From a virus, in the UHGV virus genome UHGV-1351333: a DNA stretch of 64,000 bases, one strand, 5' to 3'. Numbering within the stretch: position 1 is the stretch's first letter; every line of letters begins with the position of its first letter. This document shows, one piece after another, positions 8,849 through 63,824 of this stretch. Below the pieces are notes generated by a model, which searched no databases, was not told where the DNA came from, and saw nothing but the letters and a program-made list of their open reading frames with translations. The translations under genes were made by a program, and so were the position numbers.

Positions 8849-9424
8849 ATGAGAAACGCTACTTATTTAGGCCCCGCAAAAAATATCGGCCGGTTTGGAT
8901 TGTTAAGAAAAAAAGATGTCGTAGCTCTGTATGAGTATGAAATCGAATCCATTGACGGAACCAGGATGTTTCAGGTAGCCGAGTTCGATTTTGGCGATTC
9001 CGTGCCAAAAGGCGTTCAGCCGCTGGGAACTCCCGTTTACGACCTCCGCACCATTCCCTGGAACCACCCCCATTTGTTCAAATGGCTGAAACGCCGCGGG
9101 CCTCAAACGCTGAAAAATATCGCCTGCGCCGTGGAAAGCCTGGGCATCCGTTTAACCTTGGACAGCCAAAAATCCGCCTTGTCCATAGCCGATGCCGTTT
9201 ATGCGGCCGCCAAGTATTTCAACTGGACGTCATTGACTGTTTCCGACGCTAAAAACCTGCCGTCCACCGTTGACCCGCCGGCAGCCGAAATCCCGCAAAC
9301 GGTCGGACCGGAGCCGGAACCCGAATCGCAGAAGGAAAAGGAAGCCGAAGAAACCAATGAAACGAAAGAATCATCCGCGATGTTTGGGAATCCGGACGCG
9401 CAAGAAAGACATAGAAGCCGATAA
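8849..9424 (+). CDS. Hypothetical protein
   Basis: 191-aa ORF with acidic, Pro/Glu-rich C-terminus. Confidence 0.4.
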   Translation: MRNATYLGPAKNIGRFGLLRKKDVVALYEYEIESIDGTRMFQVAEFDFGDSVPKGVQPLGTPVYDLRTIPWNHPHLFKWLKRRGPQTLKNIACAVESLGIRLTLDSQKSALSIADAVYAAAKYFNWTSLTVSDAKNLPSTVDPPAAEIPQTVGPEPEPESQKEKEAEETNETKESSAMFGNPDAQERHRSR

Positions 9425-9427
9425 ACG

Positions 9428-9619
9428 ATGACAATGAGCAACCATGATTTGAATATCGCCAGTTTCCGCAGGCTCGCCCTTGACAGCGGCCATTCCGGTG
9501 CGGCTCTGGATATGATGGTAAAGTCTTACGCCAAAGCATCCACTACCGCTAAACGCTGTATGGTTCAGGCGCTGATTCGCATTCAGGCGCAGAAAAGCAA
9601 GGCTCCGCAAACTAAATAA
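9428..9619 (+). CDS. Small hypothetical protein
   Basis: 63-aa ORF tightly packed between neighbours. Confidence 0.3.
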   Translation: MTMSNHDLNIASFRRLALDSGHSGAALDMMVKSYAKASTTAKRCMVQALIRIQAQKSKAPQTK

Positions 9620-9631
9620 TCTGTTCCGGTC

Positions 9632-10213
9632 ATGGTCACTCCACTGCCTTATTGCACGCTTAGCGAAGTGCAGGCGGAAATCCGCAATTACGACGCCAAT
9701 ATCAACGATAAGCTGATTTCGGCCATTGAACGGGCGACGGCGTACATTGACGAATACTGCCGGAAAACCTATCAGCCTGTCGACCGGGTGTCTGTCCCTT
9801 TCCGCGTTCCGTCTCCATGCGTTGCCGGAAAATCCGTGCTGCTGCCGTTTCCCGTCCGGGAATTACTGAGCATTGAAGACGGAGACCAGTATGGAGAGGC
9901 CCTGACCCCGCAGACGGTCGAATGGTACTCCGGTTCAACCCGCATTATCGCCCCAAGAACCCTCGTCAACCCGGTCAACATTTACGGCACGTTCGGCGGG
10001 GAATCGTCCAACAACGCACAGGAACCGCCATTAGATTTGCCTGCCGGCATACGACGCGCCGCCGTGCTAATTGCCGCCGCCTTTTCCGGCGAATACAACC
10101 GCGAGCGCATTGACATTAATGGCGAGCGGCAGAATGTCCTTGAGACGTGGATTCCGAAAGAGGCCAAGGAATTGCTGAACCGGTACGCCAGAACACCGGC
10201 ATCCTACATTTAA
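9632..10213 (+). CDS. Head-tail connector/adaptor protein (gp6-like)
   Basis: N-terminus LSEVQAEIRNYDANINDKLISAIERATAYIDEYCRKTY resembles the gp6-like head-tail connector family. Position after capsid genes. Confidence 0.45.
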   Translation: MVTPLPYCTLSEVQAEIRNYDANINDKLISAIERATAYIDEYCRKTYQPVDRVSVPFRVPSPCVAGKSVLLPFPVRELLSIEDGDQYGEALTPQTVEWYSGSTRIIAPRTLVNPVNIYGTFGGESSNNAQEPPLDLPAGIRRAAVLIAAAFSGEYNRERIDINGERQNVLETWIPKEAKELLNRYARTPASYI

Positions 10214-10218
10214 CGCTC

Positions 10219-10845
10219 ATGGGCTGGATGCGCTGCAAATATGCTTCCGGCAGTTTCAGTCGGGCGCTTTCCCGCATGGAAAAAGCCCTGTCGCCCCAGC
10301 GGCTGGACAGGGAGGTCGCTAAAAAGTGCGCGGATATTGTGAAGGCAAGGCTGGTGCGGCGCACCCCAAAACGCTGGACAGGCCAGCTTCGCCGCAACTG
10401 GCGCACAGTGCAATGGACAACCGGCATATGGGTGGTGGAAAACCCGTCTCCGGTCATGTCGTACCTGGAACACGGGACCAAGTCGCATGGCGCGCACGGA
10501 GTTCGGCGCACCAGCAGGGGGAAAGTTGTTAAAAGACGGCTGTTTATTCCCCTGAACCGTCAAACCGCTATGGCTTATGCTTCTCAGGGAGGCACGCTGG
10601 AATCAAAACGAAACCTGTTCCGGAACGGTCGGCTTGTAACGTCAATAAGAAAAAATCGCCACGGAATCAAATATCCGCGGACGACCCGAAAGAAACTTGT
10701 GTACGGAAAAGACTACATCCTGGCGAAACGGGTGAAAGGCATCCGGGCAAGGCACATTGTGGAGAGCATGCGGCCGTTCGCCCGGAAACTGCTTCAAATT
10801 GAAATGCGCCGGTACTTGCGCAAAGCGGTTCTTGGCCGTATGTGA
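10219..10845 (+). CDS. HK97 gp10-like head-tail joining protein
   Basis: VRRTPKRWTGQLRRNW resembles the P.dTG.LR.S motif of the HK97 gp10 family. First ATG, 6 nt after the previous stop. Confidence 0.4.
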   Translation: MGWMRCKYASGSFSRALSRMEKALSPQRLDREVAKKCADIVKARLVRRTPKRWTGQLRRNWRTVQWTTGIWVVENPSPVMSYLEHGTKSHGAHGVRRTSRGKVVKRRLFIPLNRQTAMAYASQGGTLESKRNLFRNGRLVTSIRKNRHGIKYPRTTRKKLVYGKDYILAKRVKGIRARHIVESMRPFARKLLQIEMRRYLRKAVLGRM

Positions 10846-12578: not shown

Positions 12579-13154
12579 ATGGCTACACAATCATCCTCTG
12601 ATATTGCCTCTCTTGCCGCACAACTGGCGGCGGCGCCGCTTCCGGGAAACGAGGGGAAAACTTCCGCCATTTCCGAATCGTCCCGCATGCTTCCTCAGGA
12701 AAAATATGACCGGGATTTATCTGAACTGTTCCTCACGGAGGGCACGACGGAAATTGCCGGATATAAAGTCGCCTCGCCCACGCTGGCCTCGTTTATGCTG
12801 CTTGAATTGCTGGGCAACAGTTTCGTCATGGTTGAAAACCTTGGCCAGATTCCGGCAAACCTGTTCACGTTCACCACCGTCCAGGCGCTGGCCGTCCTGC
12901 GTTTCAAGGACACCTACAAACTGGTGAAAATGATTGCCGAAGACCGGGACGCTTTTGACCGTCTGGTGCTGCGCATGGCCGAAGAGCTTCCGGCATCAAC
13001 CCCCGTACTGGACATAGCCGTTGCCATCGTCGAATTGATGAATAACGGAAAACGGTCGAGTGCCAAGGAATCCCCCAACCCGAAAAAGCGTCAGGCCCCG
13101 GCAAAAGGAAAAAAAGCGTCAAGCCGCCGTGGTGGTTTATCACAGCCAGCATAG
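12579..13154 (+). CDS. Hypothetical protein (tail assembly chaperone position), Lys-rich C-terminus
   Basis: Preceded by 7-3-7 palindrome. Lies directly upstream of the tape-measure gene. Confidence 0.35.
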   Translation: MATQSSSDIASLAAQLAAAPLPGNEGKTSAISESSRMLPQEKYDRDLSELFLTEGTTEIAGYKVASPTLASFMLLELLGNSFVMVENLGQIPANLFTFTTVQALAVLRFKDTYKLVKMIAEDRDAFDRLVLRMAEELPASTPVLDIAVAIVELMNNGKRSSAKESPNPKKRQAPAKGKKASSRRGGLSQPA

Positions 13155-13347: not shown

Positions 13348-16300
13348 ATGGCCCAGGCGAATCAACAGGCGGAACGTATTATTTTTGACGCGGAGATTTC
13401 TTCCGCGCAGTCAAACCTGGCGAAGCTGCGCACGGAATTAAATCTGATAATAGCGGCGGCGACGCGAACCAATGCCGCCCTTTCGCGGATTAACCTGTCC
13501 GGCATGCTTGGCGGGGCCGGGGCAGCGGGAAAAGGGTTATCCGGATTGACTGGCGGCGGAACAGCGTCAAAGGCATTCGCCGCGGCGCAGAATGCCGCTA
13601 CCGCGGCAACGAACAGGCTGACTACAGCTATGCGGGCGGGCGTAGGCACGGCGGGAGCCTACAGCAGGGCGCTGGCCGGGGCCGCCGCGTCAGCCAGATT
13701 GCTGTCCGGAACCCGAATCGGCCAGACAATCAACACAACAAGAACGCCGTTGCGCGGGGCCAAAGCGGAATCCGACGGGCTACGTTCCAGCTTTTCCGGC
13801 ATGGGGCTTGCGGCTACAGGGGCCGCCGTGGCGGTATTGGGCTTCGCCACCAAGCTTACCGGAGTTATCCGGGAATCTTCGGAAGCGGCAGCCAGCATGC
13901 AGCGTCTGAACACTGTTTTTGGTGTATTGCTGCAAAGCCAGGCCAAAGGCTCTGCGCTGCTGGGAGAAGTCACGCAGTTCGCCAACGCCACGCCCATGAA
14001 CGTCCCGGAACTGGCTAACGCTACAAGAGTGCTGCTGGCCTACGGCGAAAGCTCCACAACCGTCATGGACACCCTACGGAGGCTCGGCAACATTGCGGCC
14101 GGCACGGGACAGCGCATTGATGAAATCGCCACGCTCATCGGTAAAGCCAGGCAGGCAGGACGCCTGTACGGGGATGACCTGAACCGCCTGAATGACCGGG
14201 GTATCCCCCTTACCGCTACATTGGCGAAAAACTTCGGCATCACCAGCATGGAAGTGCGGAAGCTTGTAGAGCAGGGCCAAGTAGGGTTTTCCGCTCTGGA
14301 CGACGCCATTAAAACAGTAACCAATGAAGGAGGGCTATTTTACGGCATGCTGGAAAAAACGTCCAAAGACTACGGCGGCGTCATGTCCAACCTGGAAGAT
14401 AACATTCTTACGGCGAAAAAGGCATTCGGCGCTCCTATCAATAATGCCCTGGTGCCCGTCATGCTCGACACGATTGAAATGCTTCAGCAAATGAAGCCTC
14501 AGTTTGCCGAATTGGGCGAGGCAATGGCCCCGGTAGTCGCCAGCCTGGCTACGGCATTCAAAGACATGCTCGCCTGGATTGCGGAAAACGGGAAACAGGT
14601 TTTAGCCCTGGTTCAAACCTATGGCCCTCTGGTAGCCAAGGCTTTGGCGTTGGCGACGGCGGTTAAAGCCGCTCAAATGGTGTTTGGCGCTCTCAGCGCC
14701 ATTGTCCGGGGGATTACCGGGACCATAAGCGGATTTACGTCAATAGTCACCGCAGCCGCCACAGCGGTGACGAATCTCGGTTCCACTCTTGACCGTCTTG
14801 CCGCCAAATACGCGACTGCCGGGACGGCGGCCAGAGCCGCAGGGTCGCAGATAGCCGCATCTTCCGCGGCAATGGGAGCCGCTGCCGGAGGTACTGCCGG
14901 GGCCGCTGCCGGAGCGGCAGGCGCCGCAGGCGCGGGAGCTGCCGCCGGGGCGGCGGGGGCGGCAATAGGGGCGCTTTCCACCGGCTCAAAAGTGTGGTCG
15001 GTCGTAAAGGGTGTGGGAGGCAAGGCGTTGAGCATAGTCGGTACCCTTGCCGCGCTGGATGCTTTAAGCAAAACCGTCAGCGGATTTGTTTCCGGGGATG
15101 CCCCCTTGTCCTGGGGAACCAAAATCAGCTATAGTTTAGCCGGTATTGCCGGCCTGGTAGGCCTTATCCCCGGAGTCGGAAGGCTTTTCGGCGTCGCGGC
15201 TGAAGGGCTTGCATGGCTGGGCGATACGCTTAAAGAGTCCGATACGCAAGAATATATGCGCGGCCAGTATTCACAAGCGCTTAAAGCCGCCCCGGGCCGC
15301 GGCATTAAACGCGTTTACCGGAAAAACCTGACGGAGTTGTTTCAGTCGGAAGAAGCGGGAACGCGGGGCAGCAGGACGGTTTCTTCTGTACAGGAGGAAC
15401 TTCGGGCCGAAATATCAAGGCAGACTGCAGTTCTTGATAAGCAACTCCGTGAAAACACGGCTATTTCCGATGCGCAGAAAGCCCTGCTCCAACGCAGGCT
15501 GGATTATCTCCGGAGCATTGACGATGCCACCATATCCCGATGGACGGAGCAGCTTCTCGACGAAACGAGGAACGTAGCCGGACGGGCCAAGTATGACGCG
15601 GCCATTGCCGCTGAACAGGAAGCCGCCAGACGGTCGAACGAGGAACGGAGGGCGGCTGAACGTTATGGTCAGGTTAAGGACAACCGCATTAAATTGCAGG
15701 AGGCGGAAATCAGGTATGCGTCCGGGATGGAACAGCGAATGTTCTGGTGGCGCAGGCGCCGTACCGCATTGCAGGAAGCGCAGCCTTATGTTCAGGATTT
15801 GCTGACCGGGCCGGACACCGGAGCCTACATGACGGAAAAGCTTGGAGCCGACTTCCGCATCCGGGGGACTGAAGACATTAAAAAGGTGCTGGACGCGGCG
15901 GGGGAATCGAAAGATACCGTGATTTTCGCCAGCGAAAACGTGTTGAACCTCCAGAAAGCCTACGAAAAAATCCTCGATTACGAAAAGGAAGAGCAAAAGC
16001 TTCGGGAAGCCAAGCAGGAATACGACAGGCAGGAAGAAGAGCGGGCACGGAATCTTGGCGTCCTTAAGCAGAAAATCTATCTCGACCAGGCTTACGCCGC
16101 CGGGCTTATCAATGCGGAACAGAGGACGCAGTACGAAGAGCAGCTTAAAGCCCTCGACACGGCAAAGTCGCTTATGGAAGCGGGCATGGGCCGGGAGGAA
16201 GCCATGCAGATGGGCCTGGCCTCGGTGGAAGCCGAACGGCGGGCCGCCGGGCAGGCCGCTATCGACAATGCGGCGGAAACCTATAAATCCGCGGCTACAG

Positions 16301-16558: not shown

Positions 16559-17356
16559 ATGGCTATTTCACACAACGGACTTCGGGAACCCATTGAGCAG
16601 CCCGGAACGATGACCGTCGAACGGGTATCGGAAGACGGCGTCGTCCGGTATGAAAAATCGGCAACCAGAGTGTTTGAGGTTCCGAAAGACATGGCGGCGG
16701 CCTTCATGCTGACCCCTCCGGCCACTCCAATGCCGGGGACGATATTCCTTGAATCAAGGTGCGAAGAGGAAAATGCGGAGTGGTCTAAAGTGACGTTCAC
16801 TTACGGTGAAGACCCTGACGATTCTTCCGGAAGCGGTGGTGACGATTCGGTGCGCCGAACGGTCAACGTCACTACGTCCCTGGTGGATATCCCGATTCAG
16901 TGCTCCCCGAAGTACATTGATATGTCCGGAGATTCCCCAAAGTCAAAAATCCCTGACGAAGATTTGAAGCTTTTGGCCTACGCCATGTCCGGCCAGTTCA
17001 AAGACCCGCGAAACAATACCTATATCAAGGACAGCCTCACATCGGACCTGGCTCGTGAAATTTTCGACTATTTAACGCTCGGAATCACGCATTTCGCCTA
17101 TCCGCAGACGGTGATACGCATTTCTTACCCAAAATCCAAAGTAGGTTCCGGCCAGCAGTTCGGCGTTCCCACCAAGACGCCGGGGAAGAAGGGCGACGCT
17201 ATCCCGGTAAAGCTCCCGGAAGACAGCAAGATTGATTTCCAGCTGATTTCCCGGTCCATTAACTACGACGGAAAATACCACACAACGGATGAAGAATACC
17301 AGTCGTCATCCCCGCTGGGCTGGGCGAATGACCGGAAATTCTGGGGGGAAGAATAA
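16559..17356 (+). CDS. Distal tail protein candidate
   Basis: First ATG after the palindrome at 16533-16549. The ORF-table start at 16505 would translate the palindrome. Lies directly after the tape measure gene. Confidence 0.35.
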   Translation: MAISHNGLREPIEQPGTMTVERVSEDGVVRYEKSATRVFEVPKDMAAAFMLTPPATPMPGTIFLESRCEEENAEWSKVTFTYGEDPDDSSGSGGDDSVRRTVNVTTSLVDIPIQCSPKYIDMSGDSPKSKIPDEDLKLLAYAMSGQFKDPRNNTYIKDSLTSDLAREIFDYLTLGITHFAYPQTVIRISYPKSKVGSGQQFGVPTKTPGKKGDAIPVKLPEDSKIDFQLISRSINYDGKYHTTDEEYQSSSPLGWANDRKFWGEE

Positions 17357-17376: not shown

Positions 17377-19827
17377 ATGGCATTACGGCGCGTACAGAGA
17401 GGCGAACCTCTGCGTATCGGTCAGATTAACCAATACGCCGAACTTCTTGGCCAAATGACCGGCGGGGGAAAACTCTTCCGGGCCAACAGGACCGGCTACC
17501 AGATGGACCGGGACCTGAACCCCCTGTTCCCGTTCGAGCTGATGGCCCTGGACGCGCAGTCGAGTACCGGAGGAAGCGCAAAAGGCGTGCCGTTGGCGGA
17601 ATCTAAAGACCTGGTCGCTTTTCTTCACCCCGGTTCCGTCACGTTTATCGGTCTGGACGGCATGGCCTCACAGGTGTTTCCCGTCATTAAAAACCCGAAA
17701 TACGCTCCTACGGATTCTCCCGGCGGAGGCAATGAAGATGGGGCCGCGGTCAACACCTGGCCCCGCCCCGGCATCCAGATTGAGCTTGATACGGTGTACG
17801 GCGTTCACCTGTTCGCCAAGCTGGAACGGGTGACGATGCAGATAGGCCGTGACCGGATAATTCAAGTGTCGGTCAAGAAATGGTGCCGTGACCGGACTCC
17901 ATTCATCGGCACGGAAGACGAAATGGACAGTTCCGCTTCGGATGACGAAGATATTATCCGGACGTTCATTCCGTTGTTCCGCCCCACGGAAGACAGCGCA
18001 ATCGAAGGAAACGTTTATGTGGAAAATCTGCATGAAAGCGATTTGATTCTGCCGGATATTCCGCTTGAAGGCGGATCGTCTTCATCTTCGGCGTCCTCTT
18101 CCTCGTCTTCCAGCAGTTCAAGTTCAAGCGGTGGAGTATCGTTCAGCAGCTCTTCATCAAAATCGGAAAGCTCGGAATCCGCGTCTTTTTCTTCCTCGTC
18201 TTCATCGTCAAGAGGCCCGTATATTGACCCGACGCTGATTTCCGTACCGGCGCGGGAAACCGATTCCGGATTCGGCGGCATCTACCGCACGCTGAAAGGC
18301 TTTAACTTCCCGCCCAGCGATGATAAGCCGGGCATGGCGTATATCATCATTTACAGTCCGGTCGAGGCCTGTGATTGGGTAAACTTTTCCACCGCCGGAT
18401 TGGCGGAAACGAAAACGGACCAGCAATGGGAAGGCTATGTCGCCATTGACGATAACGGAAATTGGGATTGCAATGTCATCATCGACGAATTCACAGACCC
18501 TGAAAATACGGGCGCTCACCGATTCAAGGATTTCAAAGTAGGCTACCGGGCAAAAAAACAAAATACGGCTGTCGATATTCTCATTGTTGACCAGTCGCCC
18601 CCGGAAATGTCCTCTTCCTCGTCCTCGTCGGCAGAAAGTTCGTCGTCGGAAGAAAAATATTATTTCCGCTTTGTTCCGAATAACATCACTGTAGACAGCC
18701 GGTGGCAGAAAGTTCAGGGCTATATCCGCACCGATTCCCCCTATGGGTGGAAAATCCCGGAAGATTTTGCAGCGCAGTTTCCTTCCGGAAAATGGGTATC
18801 TATCTCCCCGCTGACCGGGAAGGACCACGACAATTTTGAAGTCACGTTCCAGACGAACGAAGAAGGCGCCTCCCGCGATAATCTGGTGACAGGCTACGCG
18901 CTGACGTCGCGCGGCACGTTGATGCTGACGGCGACCGACACATTAAATGTCACCCAAACCTCGGAAGCTTCTTCTTCCTCATCGAGCAGTTCAAGCAGCT
19001 CGTCAAGTTCAAGTTCTTCTTCGTCTTCCGGTTCGTCGAGTTCATCCCAGGCGGATTGGTTTGAGGTGTTTCCCACGTCGATGGCTTTCGGCGCAGACGG
19101 CAAACCGAAAGATTCCAACAAGGTAAGGTTGCGCGGAACGGTCGAATGGTCAGCTGACACGCAAAGCGCCTGGTGTTCCATGTCTCCCACGTCAGGACCG
19201 GCGCCGGGGGATGCCGGGACGGAAGCCATAATCACCTGCCAGCCTAATGAGGGAGTAAATGGCCGGAGCACGCTCGTCGAGTTTACCGTTAGTTTGAACG
19301 GATCGCCGCAATATTACTATGTCAACGTTATCCAGGAGGGCAACCCTCCCGTGCCTTCATCGGGAAGCGAGTCCTCTTCCTCGGAAGCTTCTTCCGGGGC
19401 CAGCTCGGCCTCGTCAAGCAAGACCGCTATTTTGCCGGTCCGGGGAAAGTTCCTGGGCGTGATGTGCATGGAGTCCCCGGAAACATGGTTTGTGGACTTC
19501 GCCACCGTTCATTTTCCGCTTGGATTGGCGTTAATCGACCGGACGTTCATCGACGTCACCGAACCCGGTTCCATAGCGGTTGTTTCCGCTGTAGATGATA
19601 GGGGCCGCCCCGCGCGGGCATGGCTCCGGCAGGAAGGAAAGTACCTTACCCTGTACGCGAAGCCGCAGGGGTTAAGCCGCGTATTCCGGCCGCAGTCTGT
19701 TATTGTCCAGCTCATCGGCAAGCGTCTGGGCCACCGCGCGCGGTTTCCGGAATTTACGAAAGACCAGTTTATCGCCAATGAAGCGTTTTACGCTAAAGCC
19801 CACCAGCCGGAACCTCCGGAAAAGTAG
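17377..19827 (+). CDS. Tail fibre / receptor-binding protein with two BACON-like domains and four poly-Ser linkers
   Basis: 816 aa. Four Ser-rich linkers. WVSISPLTGKDHDNFEVTFQ...LNVTQ and WCSMSPTSGPAPGDAGTEAIITCQPNEGVNGRSTLVEFTVSLNG...YYVNVIQ match the BACON domain pattern W.S.SP.SG...TV......R.A.IT.. Confidence 0.65.
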   Translation: MALRRVQRGEPLRIGQINQYAELLGQMTGGGKLFRANRTGYQMDRDLNPLFPFELMALDAQSSTGGSAKGVPLAESKDLVAFLHPGSVTFIGLDGMASQVFPVIKNPKYAPTDSPGGGNEDGAAVNTWPRPGIQIELDTVYGVHLFAKLERVTMQIGRDRIIQVSVKKWCRDRTPFIGTEDEMDSSASDDEDIIRTFIPLFRPTEDSAIEGNVYVENLHESDLILPDIPLEGGSSSSSASSSSSSSSSSSSGGVSFSSSSSKSESSESASFSSSSSSSRGPYIDPTLISVPARETDSGFGGIYRTLKGFNFPPSDDKPGMAYIIIYSPVEACDWVNFSTAGLAETKTDQQWEGYVAIDDNGNWDCNVIIDEFTDPENTGAHRFKDFKVGYRAKKQNTAVDILIVDQSPPEMSSSSSSSAESSSSEEKYYFRFVPNNITVDSRWQKVQGYIRTDSPYGWKIPEDFAAQFPSGKWVSISPLTGKDHDNFEVTFQTNEEGASRDNLVTGYALTSRGTLMLTATDTLNVTQTSEASSSSSSSSSSSSSSSSSSSSGSSSSSQADWFEVFPTSMAFGADGKPKDSNKVRLRGTVEWSADTQSAWCSMSPTSGPAPGDAGTEAIITCQPNEGVNGRSTLVEFTVSLNGSPQYYYVNVIQEGNPPVPSSGSESSSSEASSGASSASSSKTAILPVRGKFLGVMCMESPETWFVDFATVHFPLGLALIDRTFIDVTEPGSIAVVSAVDDRGRPARAWLRQEGKYLTLYAKPQGLSRVFRPQSVIVQLIGKRLGHRARFPEFTKDQFIANEAFYAKAHQPEPPEK

Positions 19828-19836: not shown

Positions 19837-20205
19837 TCAGGCCCATATTACGTTTCCGGATTCATCAATATCTACGGCTTTTTTGTGCGCCAGCCGAGCT
19901 TCATTTAATTTCCGGGAGTCCCGGATAACGTCGCCGGTTTCCGGGTATTCCTTGAATACGTTAATATAATTCAATAAACGTTCCTTGTCGGAATATACCA
20001 CGGCCGCATTTACAACATAGAACTTCCCTTTATCATCGTACCGACGGATAACGCTCGTATCCGTGGCGCAACGCCATGTGTCAAAGTCGCGGGTAATATA
20101 AACGCGCTCATGCGCTCTAAGCCATATCATTGTTTCCCTGGCGATAAACTCCGGAACAAGAGTAAAGAGCTGCTCTTTTGTTAAAGTAGTATTGCTTATA
20201 ATCAT
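19837..20205 (-). CDS. Hypothetical protein
   Basis: 122-aa minus-strand ORF driven by an inverted copy of the conserved promoter-leader element. Confidence 0.45.
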   Translation of the reverse strand: MIISNTTLTKEQLFTLVPEFIARETMIWLRAHERVYITRDFDTWRCATDTSVIRRYDDKGKFYVVNAAVVYSDKERLLNYINVFKEYPETGDVIRDSRKLNEARLAHKKAVDIDESGNVIWA

Positions 20206-51856: not shown

Positions 51857-52498
51857 ATGCGGGGCATGATTATGTCCCAGGCCAATTCCCGTGCCTGGAC
51901 GCGGCATGAACGGCATGTTGTCATGCGCCGGGCCTTGTCGATGGGAAAGCTGGAAGAGCTTATTGACTGGTACCCGCGGCCCGGACAGAGCATCCATATC
52001 CTATCGTGCGGGGAAATAGACCTGTTTTCTTATCTCCATTTCATGCTCCGGCAACGCCCCTATGCTTATATCCTGATTTCAACGTTCAGCCTCGGCTACA
52101 TGGAAATTCGCGCCCTGCACGATTATCTGGAAAAGGGCGTGATTGGGCGGCTGGATGTGTACGCGAGAAGCATCTTCCGCAACCGGACTATTCGGACGCG
52201 GGAATACGATGCGCTGGTTGCTTTACACAAAAGATTTCCGCATTGTTTCTGCGGGCTGGCGAATGTTCACGCGAAAATCATTGCCGGAATCGACCGAGAA
52301 CAGGGGGAGGGCGATTTTGTTGTGGAGGCCAGCGCCAACGCCAACCTGAACTTCCGCATTGAACAGGCGTGCCTGACAATGGATACCGACCTGGCGCTTT
52401 TTTATAAAGACGCGATGGACGGGGTCGAGTGTCCGCAGGACGCGCAATATTTCAGGAACGTGAGAAAAACCCCATGGGCGGTTGACCGAAAAAATTAA
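51857..52498 (+). CDS. Hypothetical protein
   Basis: 213-aa ORF. Weak HxK...D resemblance only. Confidence 0.45.
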   Translation: MRGMIMSQANSRAWTRHERHVVMRRALSMGKLEELIDWYPRPGQSIHILSCGEIDLFSYLHFMLRQRPYAYILISTFSLGYMEIRALHDYLEKGVIGRLDVYARSIFRNRTIRTREYDALVALHKRFPHCFCGLANVHAKIIAGIDREQGEGDFVVEASANANLNFRIEQACLTMDTDLALFYKDAMDGVECPQDAQYFRNVRKTPWAVDRKN

Positions 52499-53059: not shown

Positions 53060-54139
53060 ATGAAATTTTACGCGAAAGTTCCTAAGAATGCTCACCATAT
53101 TTCTTATGCCCCGTCCGATTCGGACGAATACCAGGAATATCTTGAACGCGGATTTGTTTTTGACAAGCTTCCGTCTTACCGTCCAAAGCGCATAACGCTT
53201 TTTCAGGCGTTGTCTTCCGTGGCGGGGCTTAAAGCGTCCTGGAATCCCTGCTATATTTCTCCGGTAGTGCATAACAATGTCGCCTACGCCACAAACGGTC
53301 GCATTCTGGTCTGGATAGACTTGTCTCTGGTGGATGAGTCGCAGAAGTTAAGCGAAGGCATACATTTTAATCCGGATTTGTGGCCGGGAAACCTGGATAA
53401 AACGGAAAATGTGGAAGCGTCAATTTGTTCCCTGGCGGAATCCTCCTGGGAAGGGCTTAATTTTTTACGGCAGGAAAAATCCGGGGACGCTGATTACGTT
53501 ACACGGCGCTTTAATCCTAAACACATGCCAGTGCTGAAAAAGGCCGCGCAAAGCTTTTACTGCATAAAGTCCGACCTTAAAGGCGGGGTTTGGGCGTCAG
53601 TCAATATCCCGGTATGCCCGACAGTCCATATCGCAGGCGCATCCCTGTACACGCTGATGGACGTTTTTTACTCTCTGATGCCGGGAAAACAGCTTCCCGG
53701 CGTTACCGCTCATTTGCGCGTCCCCGAAACGTCCGGATGCAAGAACAACGTTTATTTGTCTGTGGACGGATTTGAGTTTAACCGCCTTGGCGCCCTCATT
53801 ATGGGCACTGACCATGTTCCGGGAATGCTGACCTATTTATGGACTGACCCGGATGCCGATTCCGGGGATGAAGAATTGCCCAGGTTGACCACCAACGGAG
53901 GTTTGAAAGCCGGGGAGCTGGATTGGGGCGAAGCGCGTCTGGTTCCCGCCCAGGATTCAACAGACCCTGCCCTGGTTATTTCCGTTCCGGGACAGAGAAT
54001 AGGCCATTGCGTCCAGTCGAAAGACGTTAACGGGTGTCCGGTGATGCACTTTTACTGCGACGAGTACACTATGCGGCGCTTTTATCGTCAGTTGGCGGAT
54101 TATTTTGCCATGCGGGACGCGGAGAAAGATAAAGCGTAA
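53060..54139 (+). CDS. Hypothetical protein
   Basis: 359 aa. Preceded by palindrome 53004-53020. Followed by a strong terminator. Confidence 0.5.
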   Translation: MKFYAKVPKNAHHISYAPSDSDEYQEYLERGFVFDKLPSYRPKRITLFQALSSVAGLKASWNPCYISPVVHNNVAYATNGRILVWIDLSLVDESQKLSEGIHFNPDLWPGNLDKTENVEASICSLAESSWEGLNFLRQEKSGDADYVTRRFNPKHMPVLKKAAQSFYCIKSDLKGGVWASVNIPVCPTVHIAGASLYTLMDVFYSLMPGKQLPGVTAHLRVPETSGCKNNVYLSVDGFEFNRLGALIMGTDHVPGMLTYLWTDPDADSGDEELPRLTTNGGLKAGELDWGEARLVPAQDSTDPALVISVPGQRIGHCVQSKDVNGCPVMHFYCDEYTMRRFYRQLADYFAMRDAEKDKA

Positions 54140-54162: not shown

Positions 54163-54208
54163 AACCCCGGAAGTGGCTTCCCTCTCTTCCGGGGTTTTAT
54201 CTTTTTTC
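54163..54208 (+). terminator. Intrinsic terminator
   Basis: AACCCCGGAA...TTCCGGGGTT followed by TTATCTTTTTTC, after the 53060-54139 gene. Confidence 0.75.
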
Positions 54209-54218
54209 ATCCTTTCAA

Positions 54219-54354
54219 TTTGCAATCATTGCAAATTTTTTTCTCAAAAAAGTTCTTTTTTCTCTTGCAATTTATAAAAAACAATGCTAAATTACATTCA
54301 TCAAAGGGAGGAAAGCTCCTGAGAGAAAAAAAACAAAAAACCTGAAACAAGACA
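54219..54354 (+). promoter_or_regulatory. Conserved promoter-leader element (full copy)
   Basis: Nearly identical to the 46782 and 47946 copies. ATG at 54355. Confidence 0.7.
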
Positions 54355-54747
54355 ATGGCTAAATACGAAATCAATTATACTTGCGGGCATACTTCCACGG
54401 TCCAGCTTTTCGGAAAATGCAGTGAACGTGAACGCAAAATCGAATGGATGGAACGTCAGGAATGCCCCGAATGCCGTCGTAAGCGTGAAGCGGAAGAAGC
54501 CGTGAAAGTTACGGAAGGCCTGGAACTTCCCGAACTGGAAGGAAGCGAAAAACAAGTTGCCTGGGCTAATTGCATCCGAGCCAGGTTTGCCGAGGAAATC
54601 AGCTCGAATGAAAAATACCAGAACGGCAACCCCATGAAAGTTTTGAAGTCTGTTACTTCCGCAAAAACGTTCATCGACAACAGGGATTCAACGCTCTATG
54701 GGTTTTTGACGGACATTCTGCGCCAGAACCCCGCTCTGATGAACTGA
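54355..54747 (+). CDS. Hypothetical zinc-ribbon protein
   Basis: CGH...C...ECPECRRK gives two CxxC-like pairs. Downstream of a full promoter-leader element. Confidence 0.45.
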   Translation: MAKYEINYTCGHTSTVQLFGKCSERERKIEWMERQECPECRRKREAEEAVKVTEGLELPELEGSEKQVAWANCIRARFAEEISSNEKYQNGNPMKVLKSVTSAKTFIDNRDSTLYGFLTDILRQNPALMN

Positions 54748-56267: not shown

Positions 56268-56606
56268 ATGAAACTGACGCCTGAACAAAAAGCCTTTTTG
56301 GAGTACGGGAAAGCTATTGCGACCCTTGAATACAGGATTGAGCGCATCCGTTTTACCGCCCGAATGTTGTTCAAGAAGGAATACCGGGAACTTTCGCTCC
56401 GGTTCCGCGGAGGCCTGAGGGACGACTTTCAACTGTACTACGCTATCGGCGATGTTCGCCGGAAACGGGCCGGGTGCAAAAGGTGGAATCCTCCCGGAGG
56501 AAAAGCGTGCGAGAACTGCAAGCACACCGGAACGGTCGTAGGAGACCCTTGTTTTTCCTGCTGTTTCCCGTACCAAGGGAACCCTGATTACTGGGAGCCG
56601 AGATAA
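56268..56606 (+). CDS. Hypothetical Cys-rich protein
   Basis: C-terminal CKRW...CENCKHTG...CFSCCF cluster. Confidence 0.4.
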   Translation: MKLTPEQKAFLEYGKAIATLEYRIERIRFTARMLFKKEYRELSLRFRGGLRDDFQLYYAIGDVRRKRAGCKRWNPPGGKACENCKHTGTVVGDPCFSCCFPYQGNPDYWEPR

Positions 56607-56757
56607 AAAAGAACCGGGAGAGAAAAATGAAGGGACTCCGGCTTCCCGCGGCCGAACGGTCGGATGCCTGCCCCCGGAACATGAAACCGGAATGAGAGGA
56701 TTTTACAGGCAGACGTTTGTTGCCGCTCAAGCCATGCGCATGCGCGTAAACGTGAAC

Positions 56758-56925: not shown

Positions 56926-57624
56926 ATGCAGGAAAAAAATCCTAATACATCCGTCGGTCCAGTCCCGCACCGGGGCCGGAAAAAGCGCAGAAACCTTCCT
57001 TCCCCGGCTGATTTGCCCGCCCCTCCGTCCAACAGGATTATAGGCCGCGTTATTTCTGACGACAGCATCCGACAGAAGGCTTTGGAGATTCAACGGGCCG
57101 CTCAGGAGCAGAAAAAGAAGGAAGAGCAGGAAGCGTTCTTGAACGCCTATAAGGAGTCGTTCGCGCTGCCGCATATTGCCGCGAAAAAGTGCCGCGTTTC
57201 CATCAGCAAGCACAATTACTGGTTTAATTCGGATTCGGACTACCGCCGCCGCGCGCAGGAAATCCGCGAGTTCTGCGCCGAGCATTTGCAGGCTAAAATG
57301 TACAAGAGCGCCCTTGCCGGAGACGGCCAGATGCTCCGGTATCTGGACCAGCGGCGCATTGCCGCCGAGCAGAATAACGCGTTGAAGATTGCCGTCGAGC
57401 ATTCCGGAACGGTCGGATGCTCGTTTACGTCGGAAGAAGAACTGAAGGAGAAAACGGGCTTTACCGTGAGCCGCATGGAACACACTCTGAAAATGCTCGC
57501 TGACTACGCCCCGGAAGCGTTGCGTCAGATTCTCGTCGCGCCGGAAGAAATACCGGACACGGCCCCGGCCCTCCGGAGGAAGGGAAGGCCGTCGTCAGAG
57601 GGGCGCCGCAACAACACTCTATAA
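56926..57624 (+). CDS. Terminase small subunit candidate
   Basis: Directly upstream of the large terminase. Basic N-terminus. HTH-like AFLNAYKESFALPHIAAKKCRVSISKHNYW. Confidence 0.4.
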   Translation: MQEKNPNTSVGPVPHRGRKKRRNLPSPADLPAPPSNRIIGRVISDDSIRQKALEIQRAAQEQKKKEEQEAFLNAYKESFALPHIAAKKCRVSISKHNYWFNSDSDYRRRAQEIREFCAEHLQAKMYKSALAGDGQMLRYLDQRRIAAEQNNALKIAVEHSGTVGCSFTSEEELKEKTGFTVSRMEHTLKMLADYAPEALRQILVAPEEIPDTAPALRRKGRPSSEGRRNNTL

Positions 57625-57651: not shown

Positions 57652-57706
57652 AAAGAGCGTTCCTTTTCCCGGTTTTCATCTTTTCTCCCCCCCCCCCTTT
57701 TTTTTC

Positions 57707-59206: not shown

Positions 59207-59219
59207 CCGGGAAATAAAA

Positions 59220-59316
59220 TTTGCAATCATTGCAAATTTGCAAGCCATGGCTAAATAGTTTCTTTTTTTTCTTGCAAAATGTTATATATGCGTTTCTTTG
59301 TATAGATTAAACAGCC
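59220..59316 (+). promoter_or_regulatory. Palindrome plus adjacent third TTTGCAA half-site and promoter-like boxes
   Basis: TTTGCAATCATTGCAAA followed directly by TTTGCAAGCC, then ...TTCTTGCAAAATGTTATATATG. At the left border of the AT-rich island, upstream of the ParB-like gene. Confidence 0.6.
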
Positions 59317-59856
59317 ATGGAAAATAATAAAATTATTTATTTATCGCCTGATAAACTTATTGAGTATGATAATAATACCCGTCTTCATGATGAGGAGCAG
59401 ATTAACCAAATTTGTAGGTCTATTCGTGAATTTGGATTTACAAATCCTATTCTTATCGATGAAAACAATATTATTATTGCTGGACACGGACGTAAAGCCG
59501 CCGCAATTAGGCTTGGGCTAAAAACAATCCCCGCTATCCGATTATCTGGATTAACGGATAAGCAAATAAAGGCACTGCGTATTGCCGATAATAAGCTTGC
59601 ACTTAATGCGGGCTGGGATGATGAGCTATTAAAGTTTGAGATTTTAAGTCTGCAAGAGAGCGATTTTGACTTAGAGTTATTAGGCTTCTCCGTGGATGAA
59701 ATTGACAGCTTTCTTGTCGCAGAGGAAGAAATAAAAGAGGAAGGAGAATTAAAATGCGAAGAAGCTAAAGAAAAAATACCAAATGATTTTAAAACTGTAG
59801 AAGAAACAAAACTAGTTCATAGATGCCCGCGATGCAATTATGAATTTAATGACTAA
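59317..59856 (+). CDS. ParB-like nuclease domain protein
   Basis: IEYDNNTRLHDEEQINQICRSIREFGFTNPILIDENNIIIAGHGRKAAAIRLGLKTIP matches the ParB N-terminal (ParBc) domain. Lies in an island of about 30% GC. Confidence 0.6.
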   Translation: MENNKIIYLSPDKLIEYDNNTRLHDEEQINQICRSIREFGFTNPILIDENNIIIAGHGRKAAAIRLGLKTIPAIRLSGLTDKQIKALRIADNKLALNAGWDDELLKFEILSLQESDFDLELLGFSVDEIDSFLVAEEEIKEEGELKCEEAKEKIPNDFKTVEETKLVHRCPRCNYEFND

Positions 59857-59876: not shown

Positions 59877-60941
59877 ATGGAGTATAAGATTCCGACAGTT
59901 TTAGAAATCAAAGAGCGTCTTGCCAAGGAGGGGCCATTATTTAATGTTGTTTCATTGTTTGCCGGTGGCGGAGGAAGTTCATGCGGCTATAGAATGGCCG
60001 GAGCCAAGGTACTCGCAATAAATGAATTTATACCTGAAGCAAGAAATACTTATCATGCTAATTGGCCAGATACTACAATCTTTCCTTGCGACGTGCGAGA
60101 CTTAGACGCAAATGATATTTTAAGAGCTATTAATATGGCGCCGGGTGAACTTGATGTACTTGACGGGTCTCCACCCTGTTGCGGGTTTTCTTCTTCCGGA
60201 AAAAGAAGTAAAGGATGGGGGCAAAATAGGAGATATTCTGACTCAGCCCAGGTAGGAGTTGAAACTCTTTTTTTTGAGTACATCCGAATTTTGCGAGAAT
60301 TAAAGCCTAAATGTTTTATCGCTGAAAATGTTGCTGGATTAGCACAAGGCGTATCACGCGGTTATCTTAATGAATTTCTAAGAGCATTCTCCGCATCTGA
60401 TTATATATGTAAAGCAAAAATCCTTAATGCACAGTATCTTGGTGTACCACAGTGCCGACATAGACTTATTTTTGTCGGTGTTAGAAAAGACTTATGGCGT
60501 TCAGAGTTTGAAAATAAAACGCATCCGAAACCGTTTAGCTATTTAATACCGCTCAAAGATGCTTTTCGCGGTATTATAAATACGTCAGAAGAGCTTGCGC
60601 AGGTTGATATATCAAAATACGTGATTTATCAACGTCTTATAAAGTTGAAAAAGGGGAAATCTGACTCTGAAAGGTTTAATCTGGTAAAAGCTGATGATAA
60701 TAGGCCGTCTCCGTGCATAACGGCGTCCACTGGACGTTTAGGGTGCGCTTGTGCCTGTCATTGGGACAATAGAGCTTTTACACTTAAAGAGCTTAAAAGA
60801 ATAACAAGCGTACCAGACGATTATATATTAACAGGAACATATAGCCAGCAGGTTGAACGGCTCGGACGTATGGTCCCACCCTTGATGATGAAAGCAGTCG
60901 CAGCAAATCTTTATACTAATATTTTAAAGGAGTTAAAATGA
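59877..60941 (+). CDS. DNA cytosine-5 methyltransferase
   Basis: Motif I FAGGGGSSCGY, motif IV GSPPCCGFSSSG (PC catalytic dipeptide), motif VI IAENVAGL. Lies in the AT-rich island. Confidence 0.8.
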   Translation: MEYKIPTVLEIKERLAKEGPLFNVVSLFAGGGGSSCGYRMAGAKVLAINEFIPEARNTYHANWPDTTIFPCDVRDLDANDILRAINMAPGELDVLDGSPPCCGFSSSGKRSKGWGQNRRYSDSAQVGVETLFFEYIRILRELKPKCFIAENVAGLAQGVSRGYLNEFLRAFSASDYICKAKILNAQYLGVPQCRHRLIFVGVRKDLWRSEFENKTHPKPFSYLIPLKDAFRGIINTSEELAQVDISKYVIYQRLIKLKKGKSDSERFNLVKADDNRPSPCITASTGRLGCACACHWDNRAFTLKELKRITSVPDDYILTGTYSQQVERLGRMVPPLMMKAVAANLYTNILKELK

Positions 60942-61594: not shown

Positions 61595-61861
61595 TCTATT
61601 TAACATTTACATTCATAATAATAAAATTATTCGTCCGAAGTATCGGAAGCCGAAAAAAACAGCTTGCAATTTCAGCCCCTTGATGCGATATTGCCAGTGT
61701 TGCCCGCGTTGACGGGAACCTGATTCATGCCTTGAAAATTTAAAGTAAAGGCGCAACAACCGATAAATAGCTGCTATCAAGAAAGACAAGCCCCCGGCCT
61801 TCTCCTGCATCCCATCGCGCATATCAAAAGCCTGTCATGCGTTCCGCAGGAAACCGGGGGC

Positions 61862-62218
61862 TTGTTTTATGCCGCCCCTCCGGATATAACGGACGGCGTC
61901 ATGATTGTCTTAAATACTCCCATTGCTACCATACCGGGACGCCGGTACTGCATTACCACCGTATCATCCGTTCAGGTGATAGCTGCCATTGACGGGGAAG
62001 AATTCGACCTGCTGGGGGGCCTTCCCGTTTCCGGCCAGGCGCAGTTCGTCGCTCCGACGGACCACATTGAAGTGCGGGACGCATCAACCCCGGAAGAAGA
62101 AACGGCCAGCGCGGCTGAACCGTCCGCGGAACCGTCAAGCGCCATGTTCGGCACAGTGTCCCTTGCCGGGGATGCGGCTTCCGTAGCCGGGAACATTGTC
62201 GAGATTGTGCGCAGTTGA
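61862..62218 (+). CDS. Hypothetical protein
   Basis: ORF-table coordinates; alternative start codon. Ala/Ser/Glu-rich C-terminus. Confidence 0.3.
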   Translation: MFYAAPPDITDGVMIVLNTPIATIPGRRYCITTVSSVQVIAAIDGEEFDLLGGLPVSGQAQFVAPTDHIEVRDASTPEEETASAAEPSAEPSSAMFGTVSLAGDAASVAGNIVEIVRS

Positions 62219-62484
62219 CAAGCTATCCCGGATTTGGCAGGATGCTCCCCGCATGCACGATTCGCTTCAAAGGCGTGGATTGAAACGATAAGGGCATGCG
62301 CTCTAGGTGTGTGCCTATTCCCGCCCTGTTCTGCGGACGGGAACAACAAGGGGTGCCCTTCCTTTTTTTCCAGGATGGCTGCGGCTGAAAAACCGCGGGG
62401 GAAGAAGGAAGGGCATTTTGCCGTGTTCATTCTTTTTTGTTTCTCGATTTTTTTATGTCTGAATCTGCTGCCCCCCCCTGCCGG

Positions 62485-63219
62485 ATGCACTGCATTATTC
62501 CGCTGAAAGCCCGCTCCGTGCGTTGTCCGGGAAAGAATTTCAGAACCTGCAACCCGTATCTTTCCGGGGGCCTGTTCTCTTTGTGGGAGGTGACGGCCAG
62601 ATACATCAGGGCGGAGGGCTGGGAGCCGGTCATCTCCTGTGACAGCCCGGAACTGCTGCGCGGCATTGCCCGGCGCGGATATGAACGCACCGTCTTATGG
62701 CGCCCTGACCCGGAATCCCCCTACATGCAGGGACACATCAGCCAGGTTGCCTTTAATATTGAAGCCAAAGATTCAGACCTGGTTTGCATAGCCCAGGCAA
62801 CTTCCCCGGTGCGCCGCTCCGGACTGCTCCGGGCCATGTACGCCCTGATGTCTTCCGATACCGCCATTCAGGCGGCGTTCACAGCGGAACGCCTGAAAAT
62901 CTGCGGCGTCCTGAACGGCGCAGTTTTCGGTCAGGATGAAAGCCAGTCCGCCCGGCACTGGTACGACCATTATGACGGGGGGCTTCTCCTGCTGCGCTAC
63001 GGAACCCTGAAACGCTGCCCTGCCCGGACGGTCGTGCATCCTGGGCTGCTGTCCGGCTCCGGCGACCGGGTGGCCGTGTTTTACCAGTTTTTGCCCTGGT
63101 CATTTCAAATTGACACGGAAGACGACTATTCCTTTTATCTGCAAATGCGTCCTGACGGGAATGAAAGCCCCCCCCTTTCCCGGACGGCCGAACACCCGTA
63201 CCGGATATACCCGGACTGA
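62485..63219 (+). CDS. Cytidylyltransferase (CMP-ulosonic/nonulosonic acid synthetase-like, CTP_transf_3)
   Basis: MHCIIPLKARSVRCPGKNF parallels IIPAR.GSKG...KN of KdsB/NeuA-type enzymes. AQATSPVRR parallels LQPTSPLR. A C8 tract lies 7 nt upstream of the ATG. Confidence 0.6.
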   Translation: MHCIIPLKARSVRCPGKNFRTCNPYLSGGLFSLWEVTARYIRAEGWEPVISCDSPELLRGIARRGYERTVLWRPDPESPYMQGHISQVAFNIEAKDSDLVCIAQATSPVRRSGLLRAMYALMSSDTAIQAAFTAERLKICGVLNGAVFGQDESQSARHWYDHYDGGLLLLRYGTLKRCPARTVVHPGLLSGSGDRVAVFYQFLPWSFQIDTEDDYSFYLQMRPDGNESPPLSRTAEHPYRIYPD

Positions 63220-63224
63220 CCAAT

Positions 63225-63824
63225 ATGATTGTGCTGATAGGCAACGCCCAGGAATCCGAGCACCGGCTTAACGACTGCTCCGCCATAATTGATTCCGGCA
63301 AGCCCCGGCTGGTGGTGAGGGTGTCGAAAATGTGCAACTACGATTCCGGGAAAACCGGAACGCGTTGTGACTGGGTATTCCTCAACCCCAATCCCGCCTA
63401 CTGGACATTCCCGCCGGAGCGCCGCCATTGGGGCGTCCTCGCCGGCGCCAGTAAAATCATCATCACGTACCCGCCGCCCGGAACCATGAAAGACGGGCCC
63501 TGCATCCCTCCGTACTGGCGCGGGGAAGAGTACCGTTTCCTGCACCAGCACCCCTTTCTGGAATATTTGCCGGAACCGGTATTCCGGGAAGGAATGTCCC
63601 GGCGGTTTACGACATTCGCCTTTGCCCTGTGGGTGCTTTCGCGGCGTTTCCCGCACGAACAGATAGCCTTGCACGGATGCATCACCTCACAGGACGTCTG
63701 GCGCCGCGTCCGCTGGTGTCCCTGGCATAATGGCGTCGGAGAGTTTGCATTGTACGCCGACCTGTTCCGGAACGGTCGGATTTTCAGACTGGACGGCGAT
63801 GAATTATGCTTTGATGACTGCTGA
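63225..63824 (+). CDS. Hypothetical protein (possible partner of cytidylyltransferase)
   Basis: 199 aa, Trp/Pro-rich. Starts 6 nt after the cytidylyltransferase gene. Confidence 0.4.
   Translation: MIVLIGNAQESEHRLNDCSAIIDSGKPRLVVRVSKMCNYDSGKTGTRCDWVFLNPNPAYWTFPPERRHWGVLAGASKIIITYPPPGTMKDGPCIPPYWRGEEYRFLHQHPFLEYLPEPVFREGMSRRFTTFAFALWVLSRRFPHEQIALHGCITSQDVWRRVRWCPWHNGVGEFALYADLFRNGRIFRLDGDELCFDDC

Follow-up and report, generated by a model that had tools for sequence, protein, structure and literature searches.

The 64,000-nucleotide (nt) stretch of the virus genome UHGV-1351333 analyzed here (the window) contains the octamer AACGGTCG in 23 copies, of which 22 are located on the + strand and a single one on the - strand. 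The word is polar and selected at the nucleotide level, and its over-representation as a coding artefact is refuted. It is confined to a close clade of phages, in which it represents a lineage-specific polar signal under selection, and it is not over-represented host-wide, at least at the locus sampled from the probable host. The genome is that of a tailed phage, large and siphovirus-like, of approximately 84 kb; this uncultured human-gut phage probably infects Akkermansia. Tentatively, AACGGTCG is read as the recognition site of a lineage-specific and strand-specific DNA enzyme, most likely a phage-specified nickase.

Distribution, strand bias, and conservation of the octamer

Since nearly all genes of the window are encoded on the + strand, a circumstance that was not weighed in the initial annotation, the main null model permutes synonymous codons inside each gene (500 shuffles) and thereby keeps the proteins as well as the per-gene codon usage. 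Under this model, the 22 copies of AACGGTCG on the + strand compare with 2.97 expected copies (standard deviation 1.3, maximum 8; Poisson P ~1e-12) and the one copy on the - strand with 0.77. Single-base variants indicate a strict core ACGGTC, with G being tolerated at position 1 (6:0) and A at position 8 (7:1), which led to the working definition RACGGTCR. For this looser form, 35 sites were observed on the + strand vs. 7.5 expected, and 6 on the - strand vs. 4.5 expected. The + orientation is enriched 5-7 fold, and the - orientation is not depleted but occurs at expectation. AACGGTCG is the 8-mer with the highest z-score under this model and ranks second among the + strand octamers by frequency. 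Dinucleotide shuffles, with both strands pooled, contained 2.6 copies on average and 6 at most.

Exact + strand copies recorded by word count are located at 13051-13058, 19137-19144, 21765-21772, 46734-46741, 47799-47806, 53294-53301, and 56531-56538, by word count and frame assignment at 6235-6242, and by word count and alignment to relatives at 10624-10631, 37447-37454, 45116-45123, and 51832-51839, the first two of which lie within copies of the 11-mer GGAACGGTCGG. Further exact copies are situated at 4865-4872 (frame 2 of the open reading frame (ORF) 4413-4883), 9298-9305 (kept in a relative), 23905-23912 (where one relative has AATGGTCG), 39102-39109 (inside the primase gene), 43398-43405 (at the start of the RecA-like gene), 50713-50720 (lost in a relative), and 56655-56662, as well as at 42832-42839, 57408-57415, and 63771-63778, where they are part of the 16-mer TCCGGAACGGTCGGAT (42827-42842, 57403-57418, and 63766-63781). 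The sole exact copy on the - strand is found at 43331-43338, with a chance expectation of 0.8. The variant GACGGTCG occurs on the + strand at 800-807 and 9913-9920 (in both cases AACGGTCG in a relative), 15629-15636 (word count), 31930-31937 (kept in relatives), 34574-34581 (in the PolA gene; AACGGTCG in relatives), and 63027-63034 (word count and relative alignment). Members of the second variant, AACGGTCA, are located on the same strand at 16858-16865 (word count), 30810-30817 (AACGGTCG in relatives), and, conserved in each case, at 25416-25423, 32848-32855, 34141-34148, 37647-37654, and 49468-49475.

The initial annotation had reported at least 15 copies on the + strand, a number that is exceeded here; it had overlooked those starting at 4865, 6235, 13051, 23905, 45116, 51832, and 56531 as well as the - strand copy, so that its statement that no reverse complement occurs was wrong by one. 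Several of its coordinates deviated by 1-20 nt from the corrected starts listed above, and the feature begins at 4865, or at 800 if variants are included, instead of at 9299. Its five exact copies of the 11-mer GGAACGGTCGG were recovered with corrected positions (10622, 37445, 42830, 57406, and 63769), as were the three exact copies of the 16-mer TCCGGAACGGTCGGAT (42827, 57403, and 63766), for which shuffles give 0. The k-mer enrichment and strand-skew count that it had proposed as a check was run on the window and yielded strong enrichment with a strand ratio of 22:1.

The 34 genic RACGGTCR sites are distributed over the three reading frames in a ratio of 16/9/9 and encode unrelated peptides; the remaining site (56655) is intergenic according to the present gene calls, in agreement with the occurrence in different frames and once in non-coding DNA described before. 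Close relatives are available as human-gut assemblies with 84-90% nucleotide identity. In these, RACGGTCR is intact at the orthologous position in 24 out of 28 alignable window sites. Inside the motif, third codon positions diverged in 5 out of 76 cases (6.6%) vs. 25.3% at third positions elsewhere (binomial P = 2e-5), and several of these five changes are the tolerated A/G swaps. Control octamers are unconstrained at third positions, with 7 out of 27 changed for GGGCCGGG and 9 out of 45 for TTCCGGAA. As the word is approximately 7-fold above the codon-preserving null, occurs in all three frames, and shows synonymous constraint, it is not a by-product of coding, and the selection at the DNA level that had been proposed initially is borne out. 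GGGCCGGG is itself a second polar word of the window (14:2, with 4.0 expected on the + strand; sites are located, e.g., at 2337, 2580, 13514, 16188, 22252, and 28268), but being enriched yet unconserved at synonymous sites it is probably without function here.

An absence of any function, with the word as a by-product of codon or amino acid usage or of an avoidance of restriction-site orientations of the Type III kind, is extremely improbable. Strand bias alone can arise in either of these ways, but neither the difference between 3 expected and 22 observed copies, nor the use of all frames, nor the constraint at synonymous sites, nor the undepleted - strand count fits this explanation. In phage T7, all 36 EcoP15I sites (CAGCAG) have one orientation, and the copies of an asymmetric word are thus likewise confined to one strand. 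Such a pattern needs only the missing inverse, whereas here the forward word is enriched 7-fold and the inverse is found at expectation (1 vs. 0.77 for AACGGTCG; 6 vs. 4.5 for RACGGTCR), which rules out a Type III restriction orientation bias.

The sequences flanking the octamer are weak and contain little information (5'-C-S-S-R-AACGGTCG-R-A-3'). CCGG directly precedes 10 out of 22 exact copies, which partly reflects a symmetric, genome-wide excess of TTCCGG. The spacing of RACGGTCR, with a mean of 1.85 kb, is slightly more even than random (coefficient of variation (CV) 0.73 vs. 0.97, P = 0.03). Neither the literature searched nor the supplementary lists of skewed octamers (PMC5993296) contain AACGGTCG as such.

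Shorter words do not share the bias: GGTC occurs 175 times on the + strand vs. 297 times on the - strand and CGGTC 91 vs. 94 times, and only the full 7-8-mer is biased. These counts bear on the reading of the word as a replisome signal on the lagging-strand template, i.e., a primase start, a loading site of a helicase or primosome, or a polar fork barrier. Forks would then move in the direction of transcription, and a barrier would enforce one-way replication. The window encodes a DnaB-like helicase, a DnaG-like primase, PolA, RNase H, and an SF2 helicase (40952-42397), the first four of which are in line with such a signal, and the somewhat regular spacing of approximately 1.8 kb lies within the range of Okazaki fragment lengths. 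T7 primase sites have the form (G/T)GGTC, and GGTC is contained in the core of the motif. On the other hand, known primases read 3-5 nt rather than 8-12 nt, and with GGTC being under-represented on the + strand the interpretation as a primase site fails. Furthermore, the motif does not switch strand at the minimum of the cumulative GC skew near 12-14 kb, and Pseudomonas phage SM1 possesses the same replication genes in the same order but no such motif. We therefore consider a replisome signal improbable.

A hairpin with TCCG and CGGA arms was considered and dropped. The positions of such a stem are not consistently complementary, the flanks lack co-variation, and 20 site contexts fold no better than their shuffles, with z-scores mostly above 0. 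Neither a match to an Rfam family nor a tRNA was found in the window. A link to gene 3' ends or promoters was dropped as well, since 17 out of 34 sites are located at most 310 nt from a stop codon vs. approximately 13 expected, which by this rough estimate is not a significant preference for gene ends or starts.

The same observations weigh on a sense-strand signal in non-template DNA or mRNA (AACGGUCG), which could act in pausing, antitermination, processing, or stability. Every + strand copy is indeed in sense orientation, as all but approximately five small genes (19837-21432) are encoded on the + strand, and one out of six RACGGTCR copies on the - strand (20682) is in sense inside this minus-strand module. 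However, this sole copy is a weak variant, and the 1.6-kb module is replaced in a relative. Moreover, the missing common secondary structure, the lack of an Rfam match, and the absence of a significant preference for gene starts or ends are not what a transcript signal would suggest, and both precedents for such an anatomy, the nick sites of tf and the Chi sequences, are motifs that function on DNA. A role at the transcript level is thus judged to be rather unlikely.

Lineage restriction and the probable host

In an 83.6-kb contig of a relative, of which 71 kb were read, AACGGTCG occurs at 31:2 and RACGGTCR at 45:3. Due to the strong bias across these 71 kb, the feature spans the whole genome and not the window alone. 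By contrast, the motif is absent from approximately 50 loci of relatives with 26-51% identity of the large terminase (TerL), and the gene-order-matched, cultured Pseudomonas phage SM1 has AACGGTCG at 2:3, i.e., without enrichment. No close relative was found among deposited phages. A search with the tail protein retrieved four close relatives only, and a search with the endolysin retrieved the same clade followed by matches of at most 57% identity, partial length at most, on contigs with 26-40% or 64% G+C. In an exact 14-mer scan of viral contigs nearly all matches were single ones attributable to chance, and several copies were present only in the phage's own relatives and in one further contig (L074). 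The same 14-mer gave at least 120 matches in metagenome contigs, mostly environmental and attributable to chance; among the matches listed, no bacterial contig had many co-oriented copies.

The contig L074/L349 (IMGVR_UViG_3300029286_000263) is siphovirus-like and unrelated to the window. It contains five copies of AACGGTCG antisense to its genes, with 0.5 expected; four out of five fall into one reading frame of + strand genes, read as x-Thr-Val-Thr, and the remainder of the contig contains none. Its tetranucleotide usage is the most Akkermansia-like and window-like of the viral contigs fetched (r = 0.82). The contig is ambiguous: it may stem from another phage that shares the host, or owe its copies to coincidence.

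Distant relatives with approximately 40-46% TerL identity (L154/L215, L155, L162, L165, L198, and L204) carry one-strand 8-mers of their own, namely TGAGCTTG (7:0), GGCGGGTG (8:0), TGCGCGTG (8:0), CGCTGGTG (8:0), and CTAACAGT (10:0). Each of these words beats all 60 codon-preserving shuffles, but being derived from 20-kb pieces they are only marginally beyond the null; the same statistic applied to the thirds of the present window is barely significant. This suggests lineage-specific polar words as a possible habit of the family, with 20-kb pieces providing little statistical power. The Chi words GCTGGTG and GCGCGTG were also considered in distant relatives and are largely explained by codon usage. 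In another distant relative, L169, GGCCGGG is found at 19:0.

Several compositional features point to the host. The early promoters have a sigma-70-like shape (TTGCAA-N17-TAAATT). The promoter consensus of the Bacteroidota differs from this shape, which argues against that phylum despite the presence of a BACON domain. The nearest terminase in genome assemblies is situated in a prophage-like region of a genome bin of the Chthoniobacteraceae (Verrucomicrobiota), with 44% identity. For Akkermansia DNA, a sequence which we take to be that of the Amuc_1100 protein was used as query; it matched a protein family at 99%, and a partial member of this family is named 'Amuc_1100 family pilus-like protein [uncultured Akkermansia sp.]'. 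The host sample consists of one 21-kb chromosomal locus from each of three Akkermansia species, 63 kb in total. The A. muciniphila locus shows the top tetranucleotide correlation with the window (0.85-0.87 vs. at most 0.82 for more than 350 unrelated loci). It also shares the symmetric TTCCGG/CCGGAA excess of the window (126/140 observed vs. 55/77 expected under the codon-preserving null), with 35+31 occurrences in its 21 kb (L358). By composition only, A. muciniphila is therefore the probable host.

In the 63 kb of Akkermansia DNA, AACGGTCG has three copies (one on the + and two on the - strand), with approximately 2.3 expected by composition, so that the over-representation in candidate hosts, for which the initial annotation had proposed a test, is not seen at this locus. 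With sites as dense as Chi in E. coli, three or fewer copies in 63 kb would have a probability of 6e-4, and with one site per 10 kb a probability of 0.13.

This result is of particular weight for a Chi-like site, at which a host helicase-nuclease of the AddAB/RecBCD type is switched by the word from degradation to RecA loading. The enzyme would recognize such a site from the 3' side, on the strand whose 3' terminus lies at a double-strand end. In this way, phage DNA in linear or rolling-circle form that is entered at a single fixed end would be protected and recombined. Known Chi sequences are more G-rich than AACGGTCG, which counts against this interpretation. The anatomy is nevertheless that of Chi-rich phages: phage LLS has 23 Chi sites, one per 1.86 kb, 20 of them in active orientation; in phage MD8, all 32 are located on the top strand, and in P1 the density is one per 1.9 kb (PMC12315714). 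As in these phages, an octamer occurs approximately once per 1.9 kb (RACGGTCR once per 1.8 kb) and (nearly) exclusively on the late-gene strand, which here, like in LLS and MD8, encodes terminase, head, and tail, and near-miss variants are frequent. The rank of AACGGTCG as second most frequent + strand octamer, the slightly even spacing, and the marginal one-strand 8-mers of distant relatives, as expected if each tracks its own host, are also in agreement with a Chi function.

Against these similarities stand three differences. First, Chi-rich phages use the Chi of their host (GCTGGTGG, or GCTGGCGC in Pseudomonas), which is abundant in the host chromosome (PMC12315714), whereas AACGGTCG is found at chance level in the sample of the probable host. 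Second, the published Chi-rich phages have no recombination genes (PMC12315714), while the window encodes a full set comprising a RecA/UvsX-like protein, RuvC, a second resolvase, and a Cas4-like exonuclease (44958-45935), in addition to the aforementioned SF2 helicase. Third, Chi is clustered near the right end in those phages, in contrast to the even spread here. In addition, SM1 has no excess of the Chi of its host (GCTGGCGC 3:3 vs. 3.3 expected). Because of the chance-level count in the host, the phage's own recombination set, and the behavior of SM1, the Chi-like function named in the initial annotation is weakened, and we regard it as unlikely, albeit as the main rival of a nick site. 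No Chi reported for Akkermansia was found in the literature searched, and the one recognized by Bacteroides AddAB had yet to be identified in 2010 (PMC2887965).

Sequences that orient FtsK/SpoIIIE (PMC5993296, PMC3384302) are skewed 8-mers read by a translocating enzyme as well, but they are G-rich, occur host-wide, and switch strand at origin and terminus. As the motif shows neither a strand switch at the GC-skew minimum nor an excess in the host sample, a polar sequence of this type finds no support; an FtsK-like domain was not detected among the window proteins scanned.

Nick sites as the favored interpretation

Among the features known from the few phages studied in this regard, sites of nicking and recombination hotspots are most similar to the motif. 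The 46-kb genome of phage tf contains the 9-mer TACT/RTGMC 14 times; every copy lies on the top strand and is nicked, and relatives of tf have similar site positions with a slightly different consensus between lineages (PMC3517423). The correspondence to tf and other LUZ24-like phages is close in several respects: both words are short and asymmetric (9 nt including two degenerate positions in tf, 8 nt with two tolerated variants here) and are found on one strand far above chance (14 times in the 46 kb of tf, 22-35 times in the 64 kb of the window), their sites are located within genes, the site positions are similar in related phages, and the consensus differs by lineage. As the octamer is lineage-specific, positionally conserved, and unrelated to host composition, as in tf, an interpretation as nick site is preferred, though held tentatively. 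Among the four functions listed in the initial annotation, the site for a nicking enzyme thus provides the best fit.

Strand-specific nicks are also known from T5, with the consensus R/GCGCRGG for the major nicks, and from the phiKMV group, with CGACxxxxxCCTA/CTCCGG, and the role of the nicks in T5/BF23 and phiKMV-like phages is still unknown (PMC3517423, PMC10644984). In both groups, strand-specific and sequence-defined marks are a systematic trait, as in the present clade. However, the T5 consensus is short and recurs without a nick on the opposite strand, in phiKMV-like phages a long bipartite consensus is found at no more than 3-4 sites, and the nicks of these phages were reported in the non-coding or minus strand.

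Given that no shared hairpin was found, the putative nickase would read AACGGTCG as linear sequence and act on one strand. It would leave localized single-strand interruptions at approximately 45-55 fixed places on one strand of the ~84-kb virion DNA, and the sites may be kept since some polar step in the phage cycle makes use of the nicks or of the enzyme bound there. It is tempting to speculate that the nicks provide 3' ends at regular intervals, from which recombination- or nick-primed replication could proceed in the same direction as transcription, which is plausible given the T4-like recombination and replication genes and the PolA-type polymerase. Alternatively, they could relieve torsional stress during packaging or ejection. 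A speculative candidate for the enzyme is encoded in the early region at 51857-52498 on the + strand. Its product matches phrog_16945 'endonuclease' (E = 7.6e-8) and contains an HKD-like (PLD-family) motif recognized by eye. Searches of Pfam, PDB, and PADLOC gave no match, no related loci were retrieved, and the structure model is too poor for use (pLDDT 47).

Several points weigh against nick sites. The nickase is only putative, and a connection between the candidate endonuclease and the motif is conjectural. Contigs of related assemblies do not end at the motif but 327-2691 nt away from its nearest copy, although this is a weak test. The sites outnumber those of tf (14) and the major nicks of T5 (5), and their density of one per 1.8-2.9 kb fits Chi-rich phages equally well (LLS and P1, one per 1.9 kb, PMC12315714). 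The nicks of tf were shown physically, whereas the sites described here are known from sequence alone. Furthermore, 11 out of 14 tf sites are located in the genome's left half, in contrast to the evenly spread ~45-55 sites here, and tf is an unrelated, 46-kb LUZ24-like phage rather than an 84-kb siphovirus-like one. In tf, two convergent gene sets make the motif independent of the direction of transcription; here, functions at the transcript and at the DNA level are inseparable, because nearly all genes are encoded on the motif strand. Finally, the host assignment is compositional, and the host sample comprises one 21-kb locus in three species.

Other DNA-directed functions receive less weight than an interpretation as nick site. 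Two methyltransferase genes are present, encoding an HsdM-like N6-adenine methyltransferase fragment (49135-49905, 256 amino acids (aa)) and a C5-cytosine methylase (59877-60941), either of which could modify one strand at AACGGTCG. The asymmetry of the site and the CCGG in front of 10 out of 22 exact copies would be compatible with such a target, but this flank reflects the symmetric TTCCGG excess of the genome, the N6-methyltransferase fragment lacks a recognizable specificity domain, and modification alone explains neither the over-representation nor the strict co-orientation. A modification target is accordingly given a low probability.

Somewhat more remote is a mark of self-identity for a polar machine encoded by the phage itself, for which the chances appear slim. 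DNA without the word, such as the host chromosome, would be degraded by this machine, while an enzyme meeting AACGGTCG from one side on phage DNA might be attenuated or redirected to recombination. As candidates, the SF2 helicase (40952-42397) together with the Cas4-like exonuclease (44958-45935), or the HKD-like endonuclease, could be envisaged. Such a system would amount to a phage-owned, Chi-like discrimination of self and non-self that is independent of the host Chi.

A dispersed packaging signal had been suggested as well. Such a signal, or one for ejection, would be recognized by the terminase or the portal during one-way passage of the DNA. Copies oriented uniformly throughout the genome, on the strand that encodes the terminase, are consistent with such a role. 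Relatives with a similar TerL (40-51% identity), however, lack the word, and genomes with tens of packaging signals are, to our knowledge, without precedent, so that this explanation is very unlikely.

Genomic context and implications

Structural genes of the window encode the major capsid protein, the prohead protease, the tape measure protein, a BACON-domain tail protein, and the large terminase; a ParB-like protein is also encoded. The gene order matches that of Pseudomonas phage SM1 (Samunavirus), all of whose genes share one strand. An AAA+ ATPase gene (26417-28090) is assigned to phrog_8638, IetA-like in PADLOC, and relatives of this ATPase occur in Rhizobium, Aeromonas, and Rhodobacter phages of 80-110 kb. 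It is followed by a T4-like replication and recombination module (28169-46753) with the gene order of SM1. Within this module, a putative single-strand binding protein is encoded at 39900-40931, for which a zinc-ribbon-like CxxC motif and an acidic tail were read by eye.

The exception to the common gene orientation, a block of approximately five small - strand ORFs at 19837-21432, is situated between the tail genes and glycosyltransferase genes. In the relative L348, a different single - strand gene is present instead, and the block is thus a variable accessory region. Glycosyltransferases are encoded at 1736-2452, 21552-22673, and 22666-23733, one belonging to GT11 (fucosyltransferase-like) and two to GT25. 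Just upstream of the position corresponding to the window start, a relative (L223:131-2473) adds a DXD glycosyltransferase, a CysN-like GTPase, and an APS kinase. Apparently, a gene set for sulfate activation (PAPS synthesis) and glycan building is thus present in the phage of a probable mucin degrader.

A 21-bp near-palindrome, AATTTGCAATCATTGCAAATT, with the core GCAATCATTGC occurs at 12 sites, most of which are intergenic. The core is found on the + strand at 2473, 6519, 16536, 24399, 26370, 46785, 47949, 54222, 59223, and 63926 and on the - strand at 35657 and 53017. Probably, it is an operator or another regulator-binding site. As TTGCAA-type words head the lists of strand-biased words of distant relatives and of SM1, the palindrome looks like a family-wide regulatory element. 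It is part of a cassette of approximately 150 nt that is repeated 5' of early genes (46760-46925, 47925-48085, 54200-54360, and 63900-64000, with variants at 35630-35770 and 59210-59320) and consists, in this order, of the palindrome, a T-run, the sigma-70-like promoter TTGCAA-N17-TAAATT, a GGGAGG...CTCC segment, AAAAACAAAAAACCTG, and the start codon. A clear Shine-Dalgarno sequence is missing from most genes, whose leaders are rich in A.

Homopolymer runs of 8-11 C are located almost only on the + strand (57687-57705, 21110-21141, 12250, 47175, 51754, 62471, 63168, and 63913). A C11 run directly followed by T8 is situated just 5' of the terminase start codon, and a G7...C9 inverted pair is found at 21.1 kb. 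These runs are possibly slippage-prone or regulatory tracts.

According to a paper from 2026, no phage of Akkermansia muciniphila has been characterized so far (PMC13184272). The phage described here appears to belong to these uncharacterized phages of a bacterium of medical interest, and the AACGGTCG motif provides a simple sequence marker for its lineage. If the sites are Chi-like, AACGGTCG would be the first candidate Chi for Akkermansia or the Verrucomicrobiota and directly testable with AddAB/RecBCD. If they are nicks, strand-specific nicking of the kind found in phage T5 and in phiKMV-like and tf-like phages would extend to a large siphovirus of the gut whose host belongs to a different phylum, and with approximately 50 sites per genome the phage would be a convenient system for finding both the nickase and the purpose of the nicks.

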